Positions 10,160-59,800 of a stretch of DNA of 64,000 nucleotides are shown piece after piece (positions within the stretch are counted from its first letter, which is position 1; each line of letters starts with the position of its first letter). Below the pieces are notes generated by a model that saw only the letters and a list, made by a program, of their open reading frames with translations, searched no databases and was not told the origin of the DNA. The position numbers and the translations under genes are program-made. The DNA is taken from IMG/VR virus record IMGVR_UViG_3300028381_000200, positions 1 to 64,000 of that record, one strand, 5' to 3'. Source of the stretch: a virus (taxonomy: Duplodnaviria > Caudoviricetes).

Positions 10160-10320
10160 TCGGCAACATCGTTATTATCGTCGTCCCAAGGAACCCGCAT
10201 ATTTCGTCCACGGCCGATTCGCTTACATGGGAGTCGGCCTTCCTTCACATCGCTGTAAATAGTTTTAACAGAACAACCCAGACGTTGTGCGACTTCTTTC
10301 GGAGACAACCAAATCCTCAT
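10156..10320 (-). CDS. excisionase-like HTH DNA-binding protein
   Basis: WLSPKEVAQRLGCSVKTIY...GRLP. Confidence 0.75.
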   Translation of the reverse strand: MRIWLSPKEVAQRLGCSVKTIYSDVKEGRLPCKRIGRGRNMRVPWDDDNNDVAD

Positions 10321-23558: not shown

Positions 23559-23796
23559 GAGGGGTTCGGGGTCCTGACGACGGCTGAATGTCGGTAAAAC
23601 CACGCTCACCAATAAGTGGAATCACAACCATCTCCCGCAATTTCAACGGGACAACAACAACCACCAACCAGTTACATAGTTTCGGGGTGCAACCCGAAGG
23701 GTCCTTACGAAGCCACCGAGATTTTTTATCGTGGCGCTCGGGGGGCCTCCGCTTCCTCGCCACTAGACATTCCGCATCCGCCGCTGGACCCCGTCA

Positions 23797-24180
23797 CTAC
23801 ACGCTTTGCTTCTTCACCATGCCGATCAGCCACTCCAAAATATACAGCCGGGGCGCGAACCAGACGAGCAGCGTATCATGCAGCTGCGACCCAGTGAACG
23901 TGCCCATCACGATTGACGCGAACGTCAGCGCCACCGCCACGCCAACCTTGTCATCATCGTCATCGAACTGGTGGGCGTTCCATTTCCGCCACGCCAGGGC
24001 CAGACCACCCACGCCGACCAGGAACAACACCAACCCGGTCGTCTCCCAAGCCCGGCCGAAGGCAATCTTCTCCTGCACGAGCAGCGGGATTTCGGCCTTG
24101 GCCCACGTGGCCGCGTCCTGCGCGTTGGCCAGCAGCGCCCGCAGCAGTTCCGCTAGTTGCTTCTGTAGTTCTGGGTCCAC
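23797..24180 (-). CDS. membrane protein
   Basis: WAKAEIPLLVQE, two TM, FAPRLYILE. Confidence 0.65.
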   Translation of the reverse strand: MDPELQKQLAELLRALLANAQDAATWAKAEIPLLVQEKIAFGRAWETTGLVLFLVGVGGLALAWRKWNAHQFDDDDDKVGVAVALTFASIVMGTFTGSQLHDTLLVWFAPRLYILEWLIGMVKKQSV

Positions 24181-24193
24181 TTTATTCGGTCGA

Positions 24194-24496
24194 TCACGAC
24201 AGTTCGCCCAGGACGCTGTCATCCTGCTCGTAGCCGACGACCGGCGTTTGGCCGTTCGTCGCTTTGATTTGCTGGTCCAACGTCCTGATTTCTCGCGCGA
24301 CCGTCGACACCATTTTGTCGAGCACGCGCACGTCGTAAGTCGGCTGACGCGTGGTTTCTTTGTCACCGCCCACGCCGAACCGGCGCGTGACCGTCGCGCT
24401 GTTCGCGTCGCGCAATTCGACCAGTTCCGCGTGTCGCTGGCGGAGAGTCTTCATCCAAACCAGTGCTTCGTTGACCGTGATTGTTCTCCCCGCCAT
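24194..24496 (-). CDS. DIP1984-like half-size coiled-coil protein
   Basis: TVNEAL...PTYDV...IRTLDQQIKATN resembles one DIP1984 repeat. Confidence 0.65.
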   Translation of the reverse strand: MAGRTITVNEALVWMKTLRQRHAELVELRDANSATVTRRFGVGGDKETTRQPTYDVRVLDKMVSTVAREIRTLDQQIKATNGQTPVVGYEQDDSVLGELS

Positions 24497-24501
24497 CGCT
24501 C

Positions 24502-24590
24502 ACCTCGCTTCGCTTGCTTTGCCACGCCTCGCCTAGCCGCACCGGGCCGCGCTTTGCCGTGCAATCCTCGCCTTACCTCGCCTGCTTTGA
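24502..24590 (-). ncRNA. satellite GGY-NN guide-like unit
   Basis: AGCAGGC-(NN-GGY)n-AGCAAGC; UUCG hairpin at 24594-24615 on its 5' side. Confidence 0.8.
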
Positions 24591-24624
24591 AATGGGTCGC
24601 GCCGAAGCGCGACCCGGTCGAGTC

Positions 24625-24876
24625 CTACGCGTCTACCGTGAACGCGGCTTCGGACGCCTTGCCATTGACCGTGACCACCACCTTGCCCGGTCCCTTGGTC
24701 GCGCCGTGGGGCACCGCCGTGACAATCGCGCCGTCGTTCCACGTCGCCACCACCGCCGCTACCCCGCCGACCGTGACCGTGCTGTTGCCCTGGGTGGCCC
24801 CAAAGCCGGTCCCGGTAATCGTCACTGAACTGTCCGCTGGTCCGTGCCCTGGGTTCGCAATAATCGTCATCTTCAC
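24625..24876 (-). CDS. single IPT/TIG-domain protein
   Basis: VTITGTGFG...VTVGG...WNDGAIVTAVP. Confidence 0.8.
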   Translation of the reverse strand: MKMTIIANPGHGPADSSVTITGTGFGATQGNSTVTVGGVAAVVATWNDGAIVTAVPHGATKGPGKVVVTVNGKASEAAFTVDA

Positions 24877-24922
24877 TCCTCCGCGTTTATGAAGTTACGG
24901 TTGCGTCGGGTCGACCCTTGGG

Positions 24923-24989
24923 AAAAAAGAGACCGTGGTAGATAACGAGTTCAAATCGTTCCTGATTACGAATCATAGCTACCACAGTC
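24923..24989 (-). ncRNA. three-way-junction RNA / terminator
   Basis: GACTGTGGTAG/CTACCACGGTC stem enclosing two hairpins, followed by U-tract. Confidence 0.5.
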
Positions 24990-25020
24990 ATTCGGACACG
25001 CACTTGGTTCGCCAGTCGCC

Positions 25021-25126
25021 CGATGCCGCAGCTTAATGTCGGCGCTCTACCACTGAGCTACCAGGACATGTTTTTTGGGGTCCTGGGCGGGATTTGAACC
25101 CGCGCCTCCGAGTATTGGCCGCATCG
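25021..25126 (-). ncRNA. circularly permuted tRNA-like RNA (T arm, looped acceptor stem, D arm)
   Basis: GCGGG TTCAAAT CCCGC, CCAGGAC/GTCCTGG, GCTC AGTGGTA GAGC; flanks pair in place of the anticodon arm. Confidence 0.75.
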
Positions 25127-25150
25127 CCGCCGACGTTCCGCCGTGTCACC

Positions 25151-25230
25151 CTGAGCCTCGCTGGTAAAAGCCTAAGCCTAACCCCTTCTACGGGAGGTAA
25201 ACTTGAGCCTTAGCCTGAGCCTGACCCAGC
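25151..25230 (-). repeat. hexamer repeats T(C/A/T)AGGC
   Basis: TCAGGC TCAGGC TAAGGC TCAAGT ... TTAGGC TTAGGC. Confidence 0.7.
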
Positions 25231-25235
25231 CTCGT

Positions 25236-25312
25236 TGGACCACCGGGCGGGAGTCGAACCCGCAATCTCCGGGGTAGAAGCCCAGCGCATCATCCTATAA
25301 TGCTTCCGGTGG
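25236..25312 (-). tRNA. tRNA-Arg (UCU), atypical
   Basis: Full cloverleaf CCACCGG/CCGGTGG, anticodon loop CTTCTAC, TTCGACT T-loop, encoded CCA; A8/U14 and U73. Confidence 0.8.
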
Positions 25313-25317
25313 TCGAT

Positions 25318-25392
25318 ACCTTGCTTGCTTTGCTTCGCCTTGCCACGCTCTACCAGGCCATACTCCGCCGACACAGCCTCACCTGGCCTGCT
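25318..25392 (-). ncRNA. satellite GGY-NN guide-like unit
   Basis: Starts at TAG stop (TAGCAGGC), ends just before tRNA 5' end. Confidence 0.75.
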
Positions 25393-26161
25393 ACGCTTTG
25401 CCGTTGCTGCCTTTGAACACGAAGTTGAACAACTTGTCGCCGACCGTCGGCAGCTTGTCGCTCTCCAGCGATACCTCGTTTGCCCTCATTCGAGCCGCCT
25501 TGATGGCCCTACGCAGCGACTCGGCACGCTCCAACATGTCAGCTTTCTGCACGATGGTCAACGCGCTGCTCCACTCTTGTGCCGTCACCGTGCCCACCGG
25601 CACGTCTTCGGAGATGACCTGCGCCTGGCCAGGGTGCTCCGGTGTCGGCTGCAACAGCACCAGCACACGCTGTGCTTTCTTCGTGCGCTGTGTCCGCACC
25701 TCGCGCGCCTTGTAGACGCCAGCTCCAGCGTCGGGGTCCGGCACGTAACTCTTGGCCGAGTCCAGCGTCGGCGCAGCCGTCACCAGTTCTTGAATTTCAG
25801 CACTGCGTTTTTCAAGTTCGAGCAGCGCCGTCGCCGGGACGTTGGTCAACAGCACCGTGCCGTCATCCAGGACGACGTCGGCCCGTGCCTTGGTATTGGC
25901 CTCCGCCACCTGGTAACTCACGTCCAGCGCTTTGCGCCAGACGTCGGCGATCCAATCCAACTCTTTGGGCACCGTGCTTTCCAGCTCCGAGTGCTGCTCG
26001 ATCACCACCGGCATGTTCTCTTCCAGCGGCTGGAAGGCGAGAATTTTCTTTTCGAACAGGTGTCGCTTTTTTTCGAACGTGGCCCGCAGGTCGGTCCGCG
26101 TCGCCTGCGCTTGACCCTTCAGCTGACCCTCGACCGCCAACAACTCGTGCAACTTCGGCAT
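25391..26161 (-). CDS. DUF7873-like conserved phage protein
   Basis: KLHELLAVE, ARADV, VPATALLELEK, RTKK, EHPGQ, DVPVG, ARMRAN. Confidence 0.75.
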   Translation of the reverse strand: MPKLHELLAVEGQLKGQAQATRTDLRATFEKKRHLFEKKILAFQPLEENMPVVIEQHSELESTVPKELDWIADVWRKALDVSYQVAEANTKARADVVLDDGTVLLTNVPATALLELEKRSAEIQELVTAAPTLDSAKSYVPDPDAGAGVYKAREVRTQRTKKAQRVLVLLQPTPEHPGQAQVISEDVPVGTVTAQEWSSALTIVQKADMLERAESLRRAIKAARMRANEVSLESDKLPTVGDKLFNFVFKGSNGKA

Positions 26162-26662
26162 GTCTCGCTCCTTCGGCGGTCGCGTGTAGGGAGAACAGCG
26201 CCACCAGTGCGACGTGATTGCTCGACGGCGCGCTCACCCACCCGCAGGTGCAAATCGCTCGGTCGAATCCGTCGTGATAGTAATACCCGCCATCGCCAAA
26301 CGTGCATTGCCGAAAGTGCGACAGCTCGTGGTCCATTAGACGCTCGTCATCGTCAAACGTTGCAATGTCTCGCCGCCAGGGATTTCCGCCAATGTCACCC
26401 TGGTTATGGGGCCTTTAACTCCGCCCGTTTTGCCTCGGCCTCATCGCGTTGCGCCTATGACCACTGTCAGCGCAGCGGCTTTTGCCCCCGTGGTGTGGTC
26501 TTGCGCGTGGGAGTCGGATGTTAATTCACCCTTGGCGGACGCCGGGCTGTCCACACCAGCGCCCTCCCCCACCGCTCAAGCTGGTCACGTGCGTTGCTCT
26601 CAGTCCGAGAATTGCCCGGCTCTTCGTCCATCACCGGGCCGCGTCTCTTCCGCCACGGCGAG

Positions 26663-26962
26663 TTAGTGTGTATGACTCAATAACCACGCGCATTGATACG
26701 CGGGCGACGCACAGCCGCCGCAGTCCTTCCCGCAGAGATTGCACCCGTGGGCCACCAGCAACCGGCCGTCGTCACCGTCCCTGGTCGCCGCCAAGTTGAC
26801 GACCACGTCGCTCACGACCTCGGCGTGGGCCTTCCGCACCTTGTGCAGCTGCGAGAACGCGTGGGCCGGACACGGCAGCCACCGCAGGCCGTCGCCTTCA
26901 AACGTGCAGCCGCATTCCAGCTGGTGAAAGTCCTGGGGCTTCATACTGTCGAGGGTCGTCAT
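26663..26962 (-). CDS. Cys-rich hypothetical protein
   Basis: ECGC, CNLC, CGGC. Confidence 0.55.
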   Translation of the reverse strand: MTTLDSMKPQDFHQLECGCTFEGDGLRWLPCPAHAFSQLHKVRKAHAEVVSDVVVNLAATRDGDDGRLLVAHGCNLCGKDCGGCASPAYQCAWLLSHTH

Positions 26963-29855: not shown

Positions 29856-29920
29856 ACCTCGCTCAGCCTTGCTCAGCCCGTCCCTACTTCGCCACACCTC
29901 GCCTTACCTCGCCTGCTTTG
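29856..29920 (-). ncRNA. satellite GGY-NN guide-like unit
   Basis: CAAAGCAGGC then 11 NN slots; begins about 10 nt after upstream stop. Confidence 0.8.
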
Positions 29921-29927
29921 AATGCGG

Positions 29928-30962
29928 TCATTTCCACCTGCGCTCGACTTCGCGTTCGAGCAACGGCAGAAATTGTTCCGCGTGTGTCGGGGCGATGGTG
30001 TCCCAATTCAGTTTGCGCAACCGCGCGCAGCTTTTCGGGAACGTCGGGCGACCGGCCGCTTTGAATTTCCGGTGCGCCACGTTGGCCAGCGCGATGAGAG
30101 GTAGCACCCGCACTCGGCCTGCGCCCGCTTGCATACCGAACACCGCTGCCACCAGCTCCACGAACGCTTCCGCCCAGGCAATCATGCCCGGCACGGCCAG
30201 GGCCGCGTCGGTGCGCGGCAGCGTCTGCGTGACCATGTCGCCACCCGGCTTCGTGCCCGTGGTGACCACCAGCACACTACGCAGCAACGACGGGCCGTCC
30301 AGTGGCAGCTTGCTGTTGTTCAGCAAGTCGACCATGCCCCGCACGGGGGATTTCTCGCTGGTGGCAATCCGTCGAATGAATTGCCCGGACAGCCCCGGCC
30401 ATCCCTTGAGCACCGCCTTCGGTGTCAACTTGCGCCGACTATTGAGCGCGACGAAGAGGTTCACTTCGGCGTCCAGGCTGTCGACCTTGTGAATGAGTGC
30501 CTTCAGCGGCACCTTCACTTCGTCATGCGCCCAGAAGCGCTGCTGCCCGTCGACAATCCAGCGCGATCCGTCGCGCCGTTCGGCGATATCAATTGGGTCG
30601 GGAATGGACCCGCCCGACTTCAGCACGTGAATGAGGCTGTTGACCTCGTCGCCGATTCGGACACGCTGATAACGTTCGTCCACGTTCAGCGTTTTGAACT
30701 CCGACGGTTGGATAATAGTGACCTCGACCGCGTCGGTCACGCCGGTCACCAGCACGGGTTTGACGAGTCGCCGGGCCAGGTGCGTCGCCTGAATGGCGTC
30801 GCTGTCGGCCAGCTTGCGTTTGCCGAGAAGCGACGCAGCCGTCACCTTCGTCATGTCCTTTTTCTTCTTGGCCAGGGGGACGTCGTGCTGGCGCAAGTCG
30901 TGGCTCGAAGGCGTTGAAGTCATATTCGCCATAGCCACTTCACCGAGGGTTGTCATACTCAT
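29928..30962 (-). CDS. ParB/Srx-like domain protein
   Basis: VDERYQR, IVDGQQR, EVNLFVALN. Confidence 0.75.
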   Translation of the reverse strand: MSMTTLGEVAMANMTSTPSSHDLRQHDVPLAKKKKDMTKVTAASLLGKRKLADSDAIQATHLARRLVKPVLVTGVTDAVEVTIIQPSEFKTLNVDERYQRVRIGDEVNSLIHVLKSGGSIPDPIDIAERRDGSRWIVDGQQRFWAHDEVKVPLKALIHKVDSLDAEVNLFVALNSRRKLTPKAVLKGWPGLSGQFIRRIATSEKSPVRGMVDLLNNSKLPLDGPSLLRSVLVVTTGTKPGGDMVTQTLPRTDAALAVPGMIAWAEAFVELVAAVFGMQAGAGRVRVLPLIALANVAHRKFKAAGRPTFPKSCARLRKLNWDTIAPTHAEQFLPLLEREVERRWK

Positions 30963-32295: not shown

Positions 32296-32578
32296 GCCTA
32301 ACTTGCTTTGCCTGGCCCCACTCAACCGGGCCTCGCTCAACCAAACGTAGCCACGCCTGCTGTGCCGTGCCTTACCGTGCCGAACCGGACCTGGCCTTGC
32401 CTGTCTCAGCCTGCTTTGCCTCGCCGTCCTTGCTCCGCCTTACCAGGCTAACCAAACCTGGCCGCGCCTCGCCTGCTGTGCCTGACCTCGCCGTGCCGTC
32501 CTTACCCGACCGCACGTAGCCATGCCTGCTTTGCTCTGCCTGGCCAGTCTCGGCCAAGCCTCCCTAGCGCCGCCTGCC
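32296..32578 (-). repeat. GGY-NN array C (5 units)
   Basis: GCCTGC delimiters at 32355, 32409, 32471, 32524, 32572. Confidence 0.9.
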
Positions 32579-33124
32579 TTACATGACGGCTTGGGCGAGC
32601 GCCATCTTGCACGCCGACAAACTTTCGAGCGCAACGTGCAACGCGGCTGACCGGTCGGCCAGGTCCGGATTGGCGTCCATACGCCGCTTCAAGTGCTCGA
32701 TAAACCGCTGAAGCCCGTCCCGCTTGCCCATGGCTTCCGCGATGGCCGACGCCAACTCGTCGGCGTCCAACGTGTCGAGCGTCTTGTAGCTCTCCGCCTT
32801 CGGCACGTGAATAAAGACCGGCCGCGACGTAGTGACCGTCTCGCCTGCTGCCGCGTGGGTCACCTCGATGACTTCCACCGACCGCATCAGGTTCATGGCC
32901 TGGTTCAGCCGGTGCTGGTGCGCCGCGATTGAATCGCGCCACTCGAACGCGCCGTGCAACGGAGATGATGGTGGCGTTGCGGCCGTCACCACCACCGCCG
33001 GAGTCAGCGATCCGACTTCGTTGTGCAGGTCGGCGAGCGCCTCACCGGCCTGTTGTGCCGTCACACCTCGAATGCGTGATCCCTTCCGAAATGTGTAAGC
33101 TGAATGCTTCTGCCGCTTCGCCAT
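32579..33124 (-). CDS. partner protein of the RAMP/array locus
   Basis: LTPAVVV..A...SSPLHGAFEWRD..AA..HRL; AAAGGAGCGAGTG RBS. Confidence 0.8.
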   Translation of the reverse strand: MAKRQKHSAYTFRKGSRIRGVTAQQAGEALADLHNEVGSLTPAVVVTAATPPSSPLHGAFEWRDSIAAHQHRLNQAMNLMRSVEVIEVTHAAAGETVTTSRPVFIHVPKAESYKTLDTLDADELASAIAEAMGKRDGLQRFIEHLKRRMDANPDLADRSAALHVALESLSACKMALAQAVM

Positions 33125-33137
33125 CACTCGCTCCTTT

Positions 33138-33540
33138 CCTTGCTTGCTGTGCTCAGCCTCCCTCGCTCTGCCAAACCGTGCTCCGCCAAGCCTCGCTTGC
33201 CGTGCCGTGCCGAACCGTGCGGACCGAACCACACCTAACCGTGCCGGACCGGGCTAAGCCTGCTGTGCTCTGACTCACCGCGCCTCGCCATACCGCGCCG
33301 CGCCCAGCCGTGCTCAACGACCCTCGCCTGCTCTGCTCTACCCAACCACACCGCACTTCGCAGACCTAACCTAGCCTGCTTTGCTTTGACTGGCCACGCC
33401 GCGCCGTGCCTTGACTGACCTGGCCCGGCTTGCCTTGCTCGGCCAGGCGCGACCAAGCCGCGCCTAGCTCCGCTCGCTACGCCTGCTCGGCCTAGCCCCA
33501 CCGCGCCTCGCAAACCTCGCCTTACCGCGCCTGCTTTGCT
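33138..33540 (-). repeat. GGY-NN array B (about 7 units)
   Basis: GCCTGC delimiters at 33258, 33326, 33374, 33481, 33529 plus GCTTGC variants. Confidence 0.9.
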
Positions 33541-33552
33541 ATGATGGATGAC

Positions 33553-34275
33553 TTACGCCGCTTTCGAGACGACCGTCACCGCTGAACCGACGCTGAACAT
33601 GCCCCACTCTTGGCCAGCTGATTCTTTCGAATCTGGCCGTCCCGCACCGACGCCAACTTGCAATCCGATTCGAGAAAACAAGTTGACGACGTCTTCCTCG
33701 GTGAATTGGTCGGCGTCAAAACGCACTTTGACGTTGGCTCGCCACTCGCGGAACCGTGCCCGTGCTCGCAGGTCGGCCACGCCGGTCGCGTTGCGCACCG
33801 CTGCGATGAAGTTGTCCGGCTCACCTTCGATTCGCACCAGGCTGGTGCCGTCGGTTGAAATGCCGTCGGCCACGATGAACACCGACAGCTTGGCGAACGT
33901 CATTTTGAAGCCGACCAACCGGCACGCCGAAATCGCCGCTTGCCGGAAGGCTGACGCGTTGATGCCATACCAGCCCTCGGTCGCCACCCAGAGACTGTCC
34001 TTGAAACCAGCGTCAAAATCTTTGGCGCTGCGCTGTTTCTTCCCACGCGTGGTGCTGCCCGCCAGCTGCCCCTTCATCATTTCGGCCTGGGACGCCGGAC
34101 CGAATCGGTTGCTGACGTATTGCGTCAACGACTCGATTGGGATGATGATTTCCTTCATGTTGGGCGGGGTGATTTGCACCCGCGTCCCAGTGGTCTTCGC
34201 CGCCGGTTTACTTTCCGGCGTCGGCTCGCCCATGATCGGGTCGGCCTCTTCTGCTGCTGCCTTCGTTTTCATCAC
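33553..34275 (-). CDS. Cas7/RAMP-like RNA-binding protein
   Basis: YGINASAFRQA helix start, RNATGVADLRAR hairpin, C-terminal Gly-rich loop GLQVGVGAGRP..SAG.EWGMF; flanked by arrays. Confidence 0.7.
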   Translation of the reverse strand: MMKTKAAAEEADPIMGEPTPESKPAAKTTGTRVQITPPNMKEIIIPIESLTQYVSNRFGPASQAEMMKGQLAGSTTRGKKQRSAKDFDAGFKDSLWVATEGWYGINASAFRQAAISACRLVGFKMTFAKLSVFIVADGISTDGTSLVRIEGEPDNFIAAVRNATGVADLRARARFREWRANVKVRFDADQFTEEDVVNLFSRIGLQVGVGAGRPDSKESAGQEWGMFSVGSAVTVVSKAA

Positions 34276-34294
34276 TCGCTCCTTTTTGAAATGA

Positions 34295-35321
34295 ACCTTG
34301 CCTAGCTAACCTCGCCTCGCCAAACGTAGCCCTGCCCAGCCTGCTCTACCACGCCGTGCCTTGCCTAGCCGCACCACGCCATGCTTCGCTTTGCCTCGCC
34401 TGCTGTGCCACGCCTTGCCCCGCCGAACGTAGCCAAGCCATCCTTGCTCAGCCAAGCCAAGCCATCCACGCCTGCCGGGCCTTACTCGACCAGGCCGCAC
34501 CTAGCCGTCCTTGCCGTGACCCGCCACGCTCCGCCTTGCCTGCTGCACTTTGCCGCACCAGACCGCGCTTGGCTCATCTCCGCCAGACCCCGCCTGACCG
34601 GCTGTGCTCAGCCCCACCACACCAAGCCAGGCACTGCCCAACCTAACCTTGCCTGCTTCGCTTTGACTTGCCAGACCGCACCGCGCTTTGCCACCCTAAC
34701 TCCGCCTGCTGTGCTCAACCGCGCCGCGCCACACCGGGCCTCACTTAACCTTGCCTGCTCCACCGCGCCCGGCCGTGCCTTACCAGGCCGCGCTTTGCCC
34801 CACCTCGCCATGCCTGCTGTGCTCCGCCATACCAGGCCGGGCCGTGCCTAACTACACCCCGCCTGCTTGGCCTGACCTTGCCTCACCGTGCCGTCCATGC
34901 TCCGCCAAACCACGCCTCACCTCGCCTGCTTTGCCTGGCTCGACCGCGCCATACCCCACCGCGCCAAACCCTCCGCCCGACCTTGCCTGCTTTGCTTTGA
35001 CTTGCCGCCCCAGCCCGGCCGCGCCGCGCCATCCCGCGCCTTGCCTGCTTTGCCACGACGTGCCTAACCCCGACGTGCCACGCCCACCTAACCCCGCCGT
35101 GCTGCGCCCCGCCGTGCCTTGCTGGCTGCGCCTGGCCTTGCCTACCATTCCCTCCGCACCGAACCTTGCCTGCGTTGCTGCGCCGCTCCAGGCCGTGCCT
35201 TACTCCGCCACGCTCCGCCTGCTGTGCCCCACTCTGCCCGGCCTAGCCTTGCTTCGCCTGCTTTGCTTTGCCACACCGCACCTTACCGCACCAGACTTCA
35301 CTTAGCCTTGCTTCGCCTGCT
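34295..35321 (-). repeat. GGY-NN array A (about 1 kb, at least 16 units)
   Basis: 16 GCCTGC delimiters from 34339 to 35315; many spacings 39/49/59 (5n+4). Confidence 0.92.
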
Positions 35322-56800: not shown

Positions 56801-56895
56801 GTCGGGACGCCATCAAAGCAAAGCAGGCGTGGCTTGGCAAAGCTGGGTTTAGCGCGGTGTGGCTCGGCGAGGCGAAGCAGGCAACGCGTCCCGAC
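56801..56895 (+). ncRNA. satellite GGY-NN guide-like unit inside a 10-bp inverted repeat
   Basis: AGCAGGC at 56822 and 56876; GTCGGGACGC/GCGTCCCGAC flanks; antisense to tail operon. Confidence 0.8.
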
Positions 56896-56897
56896 AT

Positions 56898-59800
56898 TTA
56901 GTTCCCAGTCCTAGCCAGTGGCATGCTGCCACCTCTTTGCATCCAATCGTCGGCGATCTGCTGTGAGATGACGTCGGCCAGTTCGTCCGCAGCCCACACG
57001 TTGCCCTGCACCGTCACGTAGACATTCCCGCCGCCCCCCACACCACTTAGTTGCCCGCGCCCTGGCACACCAACCACGTCGCCAGGATGTAACATGGCAA
57101 AACCTGCTGACGTGACTCGTTCCAGCGGACGATTGGCAAAACTCGGGACGCCACCTTCGGTGTCCACCTTAATGCGCACGTGTTTCTCGGTCGGAATGTT
57201 GTTGATGGCGGCTGAGAAGTCCTTCGTGTTCGCGGTAATGTTCGCAAACATGTCGCGGATATCTTCGAGCACATCCAACAGTTGCTTGTTAATGTCTTCC
57301 ATTTGCGGGCCGACGATACCTTGCTCCTCCGCCTGCTTGAGTAGATTATTCGTGGCTTCATCCGTGAAGTCGCCAAACTTCTGTTGTTCTTCCCACAGCC
57401 TTTGCAACGATGGTTGCATGGTCGTCATCGCCGTCTTCACGCTCACACCACGCTGGACGAGCGTGTTAAATTGATTGCTCGTGTCTTCACCAAAGGCGTT
57501 GAACATTTCCGCCGTTTCGAGGCCAGCCGTCTCCAGGTGTTTCATCATCTGCACGTTCGCCGAGGCCGCGTTGTAAATGTCCTCGTTGGCCACCACCGCG
57601 TCCTTCACGTCAGCGAGTTGGTCAATGGCGGCTTTTGCGGCTCCACCGAACTGGTCTTCCTGCTCCTTCAGCACGTCAATCGAACCGCCGAGCGCCTTGA
57701 TGGCTCCGATGACGTCGCCGTTCTTTTCGACGAGCATGCCAAACGTAGCGAGGGTGCCCTGCGCGGCAATGTTGTAGGATTCTTGGGTTGAAATTCCAGC
57801 GGCCACGCGCGCGTTGACGTCGTCCGCCAGGTGCGACTGGGCGTCTGCCACAGCGGCGGCTTTGGCAGCGGCGGCATCCATGACGTCAGTGATATTCTTG
57901 ATGGCCTTCTCGGTCGCCTCTGCGCCTTCTTTCTCGGCGGCGAACATCGCCAGAATGTCAGCTTCGGCCTTCTTCCCGGAGAGCCCCATGTCCGCATAGG
58001 CTTTGGAAATTTCCCCGAGCATGTTGTCGAAGCCGCCGAATTTCTTTTCGAAGTCGGCTTCTGTTTTGCGTCCGGCCAATTCCTCTTTACTGGCTTTACC
58101 AATACCCATCAGCGCCTGGACGCCGAGTCCAATCAGTGGACCGATGATGGGCACGACCTTGCCGATAATGTTGCCTACCGTCTTACCCATGGCGTTGCTG
58201 ACGGTGTCGGTAATCGCCTCGCCGAACTTACTGCTAATCGAATCCCCAATCGCGGTGCCGACGCTGATGCCAATCGCTTTCCCCGCGCCCGAGAGCCCGC
58301 CACCACCCGTGAAGGCATTCTTCAGCAGGGACGGGATTTCCTTGATCACGCTCGTGAAGTTGGCCTCCATTTCTTCGCCGAAGGTCTTCGCGGATCGCGC
58401 GGCCTCGTTAATCGCCACGTGCGCGTCCTCGACACCTTTGACCAATTCGCCGATGACTGGCACCACCGTGCCGCCGATAATTGCGCCCGTCTCCGTCTCG
58501 ACGACGTTGAAGTAGAGGTTCTCCGAGGCCAGGTTCTTTAAGGCTTCCCGCGCGTCATCGAAGGGGGTCGTGAGTCCTTCGGCGTTCCAGTGGAGGTCTT
58601 CAATCGCCACCGAGAGCTGGGGCAGGTTGTTCGATATCGGCTGGAGGGTCGTAAAGACGTTGCGATTCGCCGCTGCCCACTTGGCCAGCGCGTCGTTCAT
58701 CGGCAGAATGTGCTGCTTGACCAGCTTGTTGATTTCGTCTCTGACTTTGATGATTTCGTCGGTGCTGAGGTCTTGCGACTGGATGACGATTCGCAGGGCT
58801 TCAATCGTGTCCTTGGATTTCTTGTTCTGTTGGTCGTAGCTGGCGACGAGCCCGTCAATCGCCGATTTGTGCTGCTTGGCTGCGTCCGAGGCTTTCTTAT
58901 CGTTGGCGATAATTTCGGTGACTTGGGAGGTCGTCAGGTCCAGGGCCTTGGCAATTTTCTCGACCGAGATGCCCAGCTCGTCATAGTGGACGACCTGACC
59001 CTTGACCGATTTGTCGACGTCTTTGGCGGTCTTTCCGAAGTCGGCTTCGGCCGCGACAATGTCATCCCACACGTCGGCGAAGGCTTGGGCGGAATCTTTG
59101 GCCGCGTCCAGGGCGGATTTGAGCTGGTTGACCTGGGCTTTGGTGAGCCCCGTCTGCTTCGCTACAGTCTCCTCGCTGTAGCGCATGTTCAGCATCTTCT
59201 CGGCGGCTTCTTTTACCGCGTCGCCGAGGTCGGTGTGGTGTTTCTTGGCGTCGGCCAGAATGCGGTTATACGATTCCTGGACGGCTCCGGCGGTTTCGGC
59301 TTCGAGCTTGGCGTTGTTGACCGATTGCCGCCACTTGCTGAAGGCAATGGTCAGCTCCCCGAGCACCGTGAGCGCAATTCCAAACGGGCCGAACATCGTG
59401 GAAATGGCCAGGGCCAGAACGGGGGCGGTATTGACGACGGCTTGGACGAAGCGGTTGAAGGTTTGGATGGCCAGCGTCGTCGCCGGAATCAACTCTTTCC
59501 CGATGGTCGTAGCCAGGTTGGCGAACATGACCTTGGTCGTGGCCATGGATTGCTGAAGCTCTTCGCCTGCGGCCAGGTCTTCCTCGGTCCAGACCACCGC
59601 GAGGTCTTTGCCCTTCTGCATCAAGTCGTCGAAATCTTTGGTCAGGAACTTCAGGTTCTGCGCACCCGACCGGCCCATCAGGGCAATCGCGTCGGACATG
59701 AGGGTGGTCGACCCGGCGGCATCGTGCATGCCGCGACTCATCATGGCGATTCGTTCGGTGGGGTCGGCCGCGCGGAAGTCGTTGACGTTGATATTGAGGT

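Follow-up and report, generated by a model that had tools for sequence, protein, structure and literature searches.

A candidate VIPR guide RNA gene behind a phage DUF7873 gene and its predicted target in rival alleles of that gene

A tract of repeated units with a period of five bases abuts the DUF7873 gene of a soil phage, raising the question of whether the tract is a guide RNA gene and, if so, whether it is directed at the gene that it adjoins or at another allele of that gene. The tract lies in a window of 64,000 nucleotides, the first 64 kb of a single phage-like contig of 102,060 nt with 62% G+C. Genes of the window are mostly on the minus strand, and their products include a DnaB helicase, a DNA methylase, a DUF5131 protein, a ParB-like protein and large tail-type proteins. 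The start of the contig (2215–9580, minus strand) carries consecutive sugar-pathway genes of the kind seen in nonulosonic (sialic-like) acid synthesis, encoding NeuB, a cytidylyltransferase, a class-III aminotransferase, a PseB/FlaA1-like dehydratase, an aldo-keto reductase and a methyltransferase; these genes may be carried by the phage as cargo or may belong to host DNA at its flank.

Structure and setting of the guide tract

The tract occupies positions 25326–25392 of the minus strand, directly behind the phage's own DUF7873 gene (25391–26161, minus strand; 256 aa; Pfam PF25283, E = 5.4e-63). Read from 25392 downward, it runs AGCA, GGCca, GGTga, GGCtg, TGTc, GGCgg, AGTat, GGCct, GGTag, AGCgt, GGCaa, GGCga, AGCaa, followed by a closing AGCa. 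Its 12 units comprise eight GGY units, three AGY units and one 4-base unit (TGTc), and its AGCA boundary overlaps the TAG stop codon of the DUF7873 gene (25393–25391). The variable slots are CA GA TG (C) GG AT CT AG GT AA GA AA, and the list of slots given in the original prediction proved exactly right when compared with the minus-strand sequence. The period-5 pattern of the tract is far beyond chance. The guide is separated by a 13-nt linker (25313–25325, minus strand, read from the sequence) from a tRNA-Arg(TCT) gene (25236–25312, minus strand), which was detected by ARAGORN, scored 53.6 bits in Rfam and appears as a cloverleaf in the predicted fold; the fold of the guide/tRNA region has a z of −1.08. 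No terminator-like sites were found between the DUF7873 gene, the guide and the tRNA, and a promoter scan of 23700–26700 returned no sigma-70-like sites, although the sigma-70 consensus may not be that of the host. The guide sequence is identical to that of the window in covering contigs from four soil or rhizosphere runs. As for the adjoining gene, its product had no match in PHROGs, and the AF2 model of the product (pLDDT 94.6) had no Foldseek match at E <= 0.001 in PDB or BFVD.

Two further elements lie beyond the tRNA. Just downstream of the tRNA-Arg, the stretch 25017–25127 (minus strand) gave a sub-threshold match to the Y RNA-like YrlA family (37.6 bits versus a gathering score of 69) and carries a tRNA-like module; the contig of one run differs at 17 positions around this stretch. 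Short period-6 repeats of the AGGCT type fill 25150–25235, between the tRNA-Arg and the YrlA-like match.

Period-5 blocks recur in the window, with 18 on the minus strand and one on the plus strand according to our scan; the 38 kb of the contig beyond the window gave no blocks in a scan of the same type. Splitting at a recurrent AGCA/GGC step delimits approximately 30 tracts of 7–13 units each in the window, of which 16, 5 and 5 are in arrays and 4 are dispersed, with one tract off the gene strand. The three arrays all fall between 32303 and 35321. The main array, with its 16 AGCA/GGC-delimited tracts, is located at 34290–35321 (minus strand), upstream of the vipr gene described below; an array of five tracts is located directly downstream of vipr at 33216–33535 (minus strand); and a third array, also of five tracts, is located at 32303–32578 (minus strand). 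The dispersed guides other than that behind the DUF7873 gene are found at 24515–24586 (minus strand), at 29859–29917 (minus strand, directly behind the ParB-like gene) and at 56822–56879 (plus strand). The plus-strand guide has a minus-strand tail gene on either side, and a perfect 10-bp inverted repeat encloses it (56801–56810 and 56886–56895). Most guides within 32303–35321 contain one 4-base unit (e.g. GGAc, GGTt or GGGt), often after unit 2–6, with GGAcGGC seen in five of these tracts, and the guides at 29859–29917 and 24515–24586 have their first 26–27 bases in common. When all guides were compared with their own contig and with 14 related IMG/VR loci, no guide, those of the main arrays included, rose above its shuffled null.

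The gene between the arrays (vipr; 33553–34275, minus strand; phrog_4652) encodes a Cas7-like RAMP of 240 aa, as judged by profile, AF2 and fold matches. The VIPR systems described in two recent preprints (bioRxiv 10.64898/2026.04.26.720920 and 10.64898/2026.04.26.720927) combine a small phage-encoded RAMP, Vipr, with guide RNAs made of GGY/NN pentamers. Vipr is presented there as a minimal RAMP with an RRM core, a glycine-rich loop and a thumb. The top PDB-chain match of our gene product in a single-sequence search was the Vipr of SUSP1 (E = 0.015), and a profile built from 87 family sequences had SUSP1 Vipr as its only PDB match (E = 8.2e-6, over approximately 46 residues). The family includes 2003 representatives at E <= 0.001, and residues G212, R213, G221 and G225 are invariant in the alignment. 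The AF2 model has a pLDDT of 91.5, and its top 10 Foldseek matches in the PDB are Csm3/Cas7-type chains (TM 0.35–0.54, E from 4.9e-5).

A related IMG/VR locus, L052, contains a vipr gene 62% identical to this one, tracts likewise bounded by AGCA/GGC, and a homolog of the gene at 32579–33232; the layout is therefore conserved. A tract of L052 (10782–10855, plus strand) has four identical GGTga units in succession, making it an unusually low-complexity guide. The gene at 32579–33232 (minus strand; phrog_15946), for which the L052 homolog is 39% identical and lies beside vipr, has no Pfam domain and may be an accessory (vap-like) gene. As listed, this ORF begins with about 30 codons that are translated array sequence, and because of this overlap the true start is probably internal, at the Met of MAKRQKH.

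On these sequence features we assign the tract at 25326–25392 to the VIPR class. A Vipr-type RAMP is encoded on the same contig, 8.2 kb from the guide; the guide is a tandem GGY/NN gene of 12 units; and its best self match in the 102-kb contig is 15/22, so that it has no self hit at or above the 80% level. This last property does not extend to a short guide beside vipr, which reaches 13/16 on the phage's own vipr gene. A TRAP-like protein-binding site and a G-quadruplex tract had also been considered, and were dropped after the VIPR papers and the Vipr gene came to light.

A potential concern with this assignment is that the tract might be left over from an array, decaying or without expression, and might now be functionless. 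Of its 13 triplets, five are not GGY, an internal 4-base unit is present, and the guide has no promoter-like site of its own. AGY units, a single 4-base unit after unit 2–4 and AGCA boundaries are, however, common to most of the main-array tracts and to L052, and frequent internal degeneracy is noted in the VIPR preprint. A coherent peptide of the neighbouring gene's family can also still be read in frame from the variable bases, and the tract is unchanged in the contigs from the four runs. We consider it very unlikely that the tract is such a relic.

Agreement of the guide with own and non-self DUF7873 alleles

According to the preprint text, the NN pairs of VIPR guides read double-stranded DNA two bases at a time and pass over each third one, and natural targets were called when at least 80% of NN positions agreed (10.64898/2026.04.26.720920). 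We read the guide in the corresponding manner as NNx, with the 4-base unit counted as one codon, which yields CAnGAnTGnnnnGGnATnCTnAGnGTnAAnGAnAA. The original prediction had set these slots beside a site in the phage's own DUF7873 gene. This site, QEWSSALTIVQK (25545–25579, minus strand), agrees with the guide at 13/22 informative bases, or at 13/23 when the lone C is counted, and is mismatched at 9/22. The tract, the slots and the score of 13/23 were borne out, but the self match is not above chance. It shows nothing on its own, because 48 positions of the window score at least 13/22, with a window maximum of 15, and because 154/500 slot shuffles produced a wobble-aligned site of at least 13 within the DUF7873 gene.

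The self match bears on the possibility that the guide is a built-in repressor of its own DUF7873 gene, tolerant of many mismatches. The guide is placed in the 3' region of the gene itself, its own site agrees at the first three slots and at the last slot, and for the guide beside vipr the 13/16 on the phage's own vipr amounts to 81%. Against this reading, the score at the own DUF7873 site (59%) is no better than that of the 154/500 shuffles and falls below the 15/22 found at unrelated places in the window, and the preprint reports no self hits of at least 80% for any guide set that it examined (10.64898/2026.04.26.720920). We regard a built-in repressor as highly improbable.

We also examined the match of the guide to non-self members of the family. 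The DNA of the aligned site in 13 IMG/VR homologs (33–55% identical) agreed with the guide at 10–15 of 22 bases; relative to the self score of 13/22, three homologs were above (14, 14 and 15), three were equal and seven were below, with none reaching 80%. From a protein collection, the best 120 of 783 DUF7873 homologs were taken. A further search started from the part of the homolog P0018 that holds the target site, and is hence biased toward P0018-like proteins; it added 38, for a total of 158 proteins including self. P0018 and another homolog, P0011, had both been recovered by the initial, unbiased search. Scores of the 157 non-self homologs were bounded from the amino acids by taking the lowest and highest values over the synonymous codon families.

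Based on this protein-level bound, P0018 (QEWSSMLTVKEK) scores 18–20/22 (82–91%), P0011 (QEWSGLLTVKQK) scores 18–19/22 and P0122 (QEWSSMLTVSEK) scores 16–19/22. The other 154 of the 157 non-self homologs taken score at most 17/22, compared with 13 for self. Two of the 157 homologs taken, P0018 and P0011, are by the same bound sure to pass 80% whatever their codons; these two are 60% identical to each other. The commonest form of the segment in the family, QEWSGLITPAEK, scores only 15/22, and most relatives would therefore be missed by the guide.

Several controls were used to evaluate these scores. When the order of the slots was shuffled (n = 300) and all positions of the 158 proteins were scored, the upper bound did not exceed 17 and the lower bound did not exceed 16, so that none of the 300 shuffles reached 18. 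When 27 other guides of the phage were scored on the DUF7873 family, the maximum was 0.81, obtained with a 16-position guide, and most values were 0.65–0.78; the corresponding values for the guide at 25326–25392 are 0.91 and 0.82. The way in which the 4-base unit is counted also affects the result, with a gap of one codon giving the best score of 20 and gaps of 0, 2 or 3 codons giving 16–17. These comparisons, made with scores bounded from protein sequences, indicate that the non-self match is not due to chance.

The proposal that the target is a diverged competitor allele of DUF7873 is thus supported, by bounds of 18 or more of 22 for P0018 and P0011 versus 13 for self and by the 0/300 shuffles. 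The lack of any homolog with a better match than the self allele had been named as the refuting result; such homologs are found among the IMG/VR DNA sites (3 of 13) as well as in P0018 and P0011. The peptide decoded in the original prediction, Q-E-W-S-G-M/I-L-S-V-K-E-K, is two residues off the P0018 segment. The gapped-pattern search of DNA that had been suggested there found no allele of at least 80% in the collections scanned; three of the 13 aligned IMG/VR homologs exceeded the self site with 14–15/22. The term satellite, as used there, denotes a guide away from the main array and not a phage satellite.

The P0018 and P0011 alleles are on record solely from Logan assemblies. Queries with these two proteins against viral contigs returned one weak unrelated locus together with the same relatives of 33–59% identity. 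A relaxed gapped pattern had 0 matches in viral contigs, 21 matches in metagenome contigs, none of them with DUF7873 homology by tblastn, and 6 matches in genome contigs, in unrelated taxa. No arrays were found near the DUF7873 homologs in the 13 IMG/VR loci, and homologs of the ParB-like and DUF6847-like genes are absent from the same loci.

These data need to be weighed against the explanation that the guide is real but has its true target in unsampled DNA (a different gene, a site in the host or a satellite), with the match to DUF7873 a coincidence that arises through the conserved Q-E-W and K codons. Good DUF7873 matches occur in just 2–3 of the 157 homologs taken, 8 of the 22 matched bases sit on near-invariant residues of the family, and no collection scanned gave a DNA-level match of at least 80%. 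Slot shuffles of the same composition, however, are likewise able to land on conserved motifs, and they never went past 17 in 300; the decoy guides remained at or below 0.81 on the DUF7873 family. The match is furthermore in frame, in the sense orientation and in the family of the adjoining gene, and the guide at 24515–24586 has a like relation to the family of its own neighbour, at 22/24. A coincidental match is unlikely in our estimation. The interpretation that we favor is that the tract is probably a VIPR guide RNA (vrRNA) that spells a rival DUF7873 allele, with the predicted effect of silencing the gene in relatives while the phage's own mismatched allele is spared.

Other dispersed guides and a proposed mode of action

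The next gene downstream of the guide at 24515–24586 is the DUF6847-like gene (24194–24496), and the guide decodes to the family of this gene. Its site there, DKETTRQPTYDVR (24327–24364, minus strand), matches in frame at 17/24, which is the joint best score in the whole contig (4 positions tie), and for the two genes flanking the guide 0/500 shuffles do as well. Among 60 DUF6847-like homologs the score rises to 22/24 in 5 and is at least 20 in 29; shuffles of the guide reached 20 on this family once in 300, and none of the other guides scored above 0.75. P0314 scores 21/24 for this guide, and we infer that P0314 and P0018 are on one contig, solely from equal size (6,699 nt). The gapped pattern for the guide at 24515–24586 had 0 matches in viral contigs.

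The remaining guides differ in how well they match their surroundings. The guide at 29859–29917 begins 9 nt beyond the ParB-like gene and agrees with the end of this gene at 16/22 (29926–29957, minus strand; the nine final codons, the stop codon and two more bases), a score reached by 6/500 shuffles. The guide at 33484–33535, which is the first tract of the array directly downstream of vipr, has its 13/16 match in the phage's own vipr at 34001–34026 (minus strand; 4/500 shuffles) and matches the vipr gene of L052 at 14/16 (10208–10233, plus strand). It spells the conserved Vipr motif AKDF[DE]AGY.., and its target might be rival VIPR systems, or it might act back on the phage's own vipr. For the plus-strand guide at 56822–56879, the single best match in the contig is 15/20, antisense in the adjacent 1182-aa gene (58864–58892) and with the skip base at the wobble position, but this match is marginal (28/500 shuffles). 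From these alignments it appears that at least two guides spell a non-self form of the adjoining gene and that two or three more match their neighbors best.

We propose the following mode of action for the guide behind the DUF7873 gene. The guide would probably be transcribed together with the DUF7873 gene, or by read-through from that gene, and cleavage by RNase P at the 5' end of the tRNA-Arg would probably set its 3' end. As in the model of the preprints, Vipr would coat the guide RNA with one protomer per 5-base unit, with GGY hidden and NN presented. The NN pairs would read two bases in three of the DNA, and would therefore follow codon positions 1 and 2 of the sense strand. The peptide spelled in this way, Q-E-W-x-[G]-M-L-[S]-V-K-E-K, would correspond to a variant of a conserved DUF7873 segment found in a few related phages and absent from the phage's own gene, and the 4-base unit TGTc would occupy exactly one codon of the target. 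The complex is predicted to bind the DUF7873 gene in relatives, whether co-infecting or resident, and to repress its transcription, with the phage's own allele escaping by virtue of its mismatches at 9 of the 22 bases.

The arrangement of the locus has potential consequences for its inheritance. The guide adjoins the mismatched allele, and weapon and resistant copy would therefore be inherited together; the same adjacency might keep recombination from making a self-targeting genome. We put forward tentatively, as a possibility about which we have some doubt, that a dispersed guide and its mismatched own allele make up a linked 'weapon plus resistant copy' cassette, spreading in the manner of a poison-antidote or allele-drive element. 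If this were the case, a recombinant gaining the guide would also have to gain the neighboring resistant allele, and the guide would silence the rival allele of an important gene in mixed infections. The layout suggests self-sparing by allele divergence tightly linked to the guide, so that the safety and spread of guides become testable questions. The alignments of two dispersed guides also suggest that a 4-base unit within a guide still moves the reading of the target on by a full codon, which provides two natural cases for how the irregular unit is read.

Comparison with known systems

VIPR was first described in 2026, with natural targets known for two clades, those of enterobacterial and of Pseudomonas elements, and with Escherichia phage SUSP1 and a Pseudomonas fulva prophage as the reference loci of type II. 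The system described here resembles VIPR in having a phage-borne RAMP, tandem GGY/NN units (12 here, 9–16 in the published guides), NN pairs that follow codons with a one-base skip, a predicted target in competing phages and, for the guide behind the DUF7873 gene, no self hit of at least 80%. It differs in the ends of its guides. The invariant structured 3' tail of type II VIPR, a pseudoknot, is absent here, and the tracts abut one another via AGCA; this 4-base boundary fits the 'staggered arrays' mentioned in the legend of fig. S18 of the VIPR preprint. Compared to the reference loci, there are also many internal 4-base units and many AGY units, and the Vipr protein is distant from that of SUSP1. 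The contig represents a distant, GC-rich version of VIPR from a soil phage.

Solo vrRNAs, found in SUSP1-family phages and F5 satellites, are the second point of comparison. They are defined by the lack of a Vipr on the contig or within 20 kb (10.64898/2026.10.15.759431), and the guide at 25326–25392 falls outside this definition because vipr is only 8.2 kb away. Solo vrRNAs are like this guide in being lone guides off the array, with a relative's gene as predicted target and a lower score on self. The published targets of solo guides are vipr genes, other vrRNAs, satellites and host repeats (10.64898/2026.10.15.759431), whereas here the predicted target is the rival allele of the abutted gene and a tRNA lies behind the guide. 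The crRNA-Cas7 filaments of class 1 CRISPR systems share with this system a RAMP backbone and the Csm3/Cas7 type III folds; unlike them, the stretch of the contig examined has no CRISPR repeats and no other cas genes, and the guides have a gapped code in place of a contiguous spacer.

The code itself, codon-following guides, competitor targets and stand-alone guides are already in print. In the main texts of the VIPR preprints we found no guide beside the phage's own mismatched allele of its target, no tRNA-flanked guide and no reading of the 4-base unit, points on which the supplements to those texts may bear. With the comparison drawn from those main texts, the locus represents a known class whose layout is unpublished: every dispersed guide is positioned beside the phage's own mismatched allele, and the family of the neighboring gene may serve as a simple predictor for the targets of dispersed guides.
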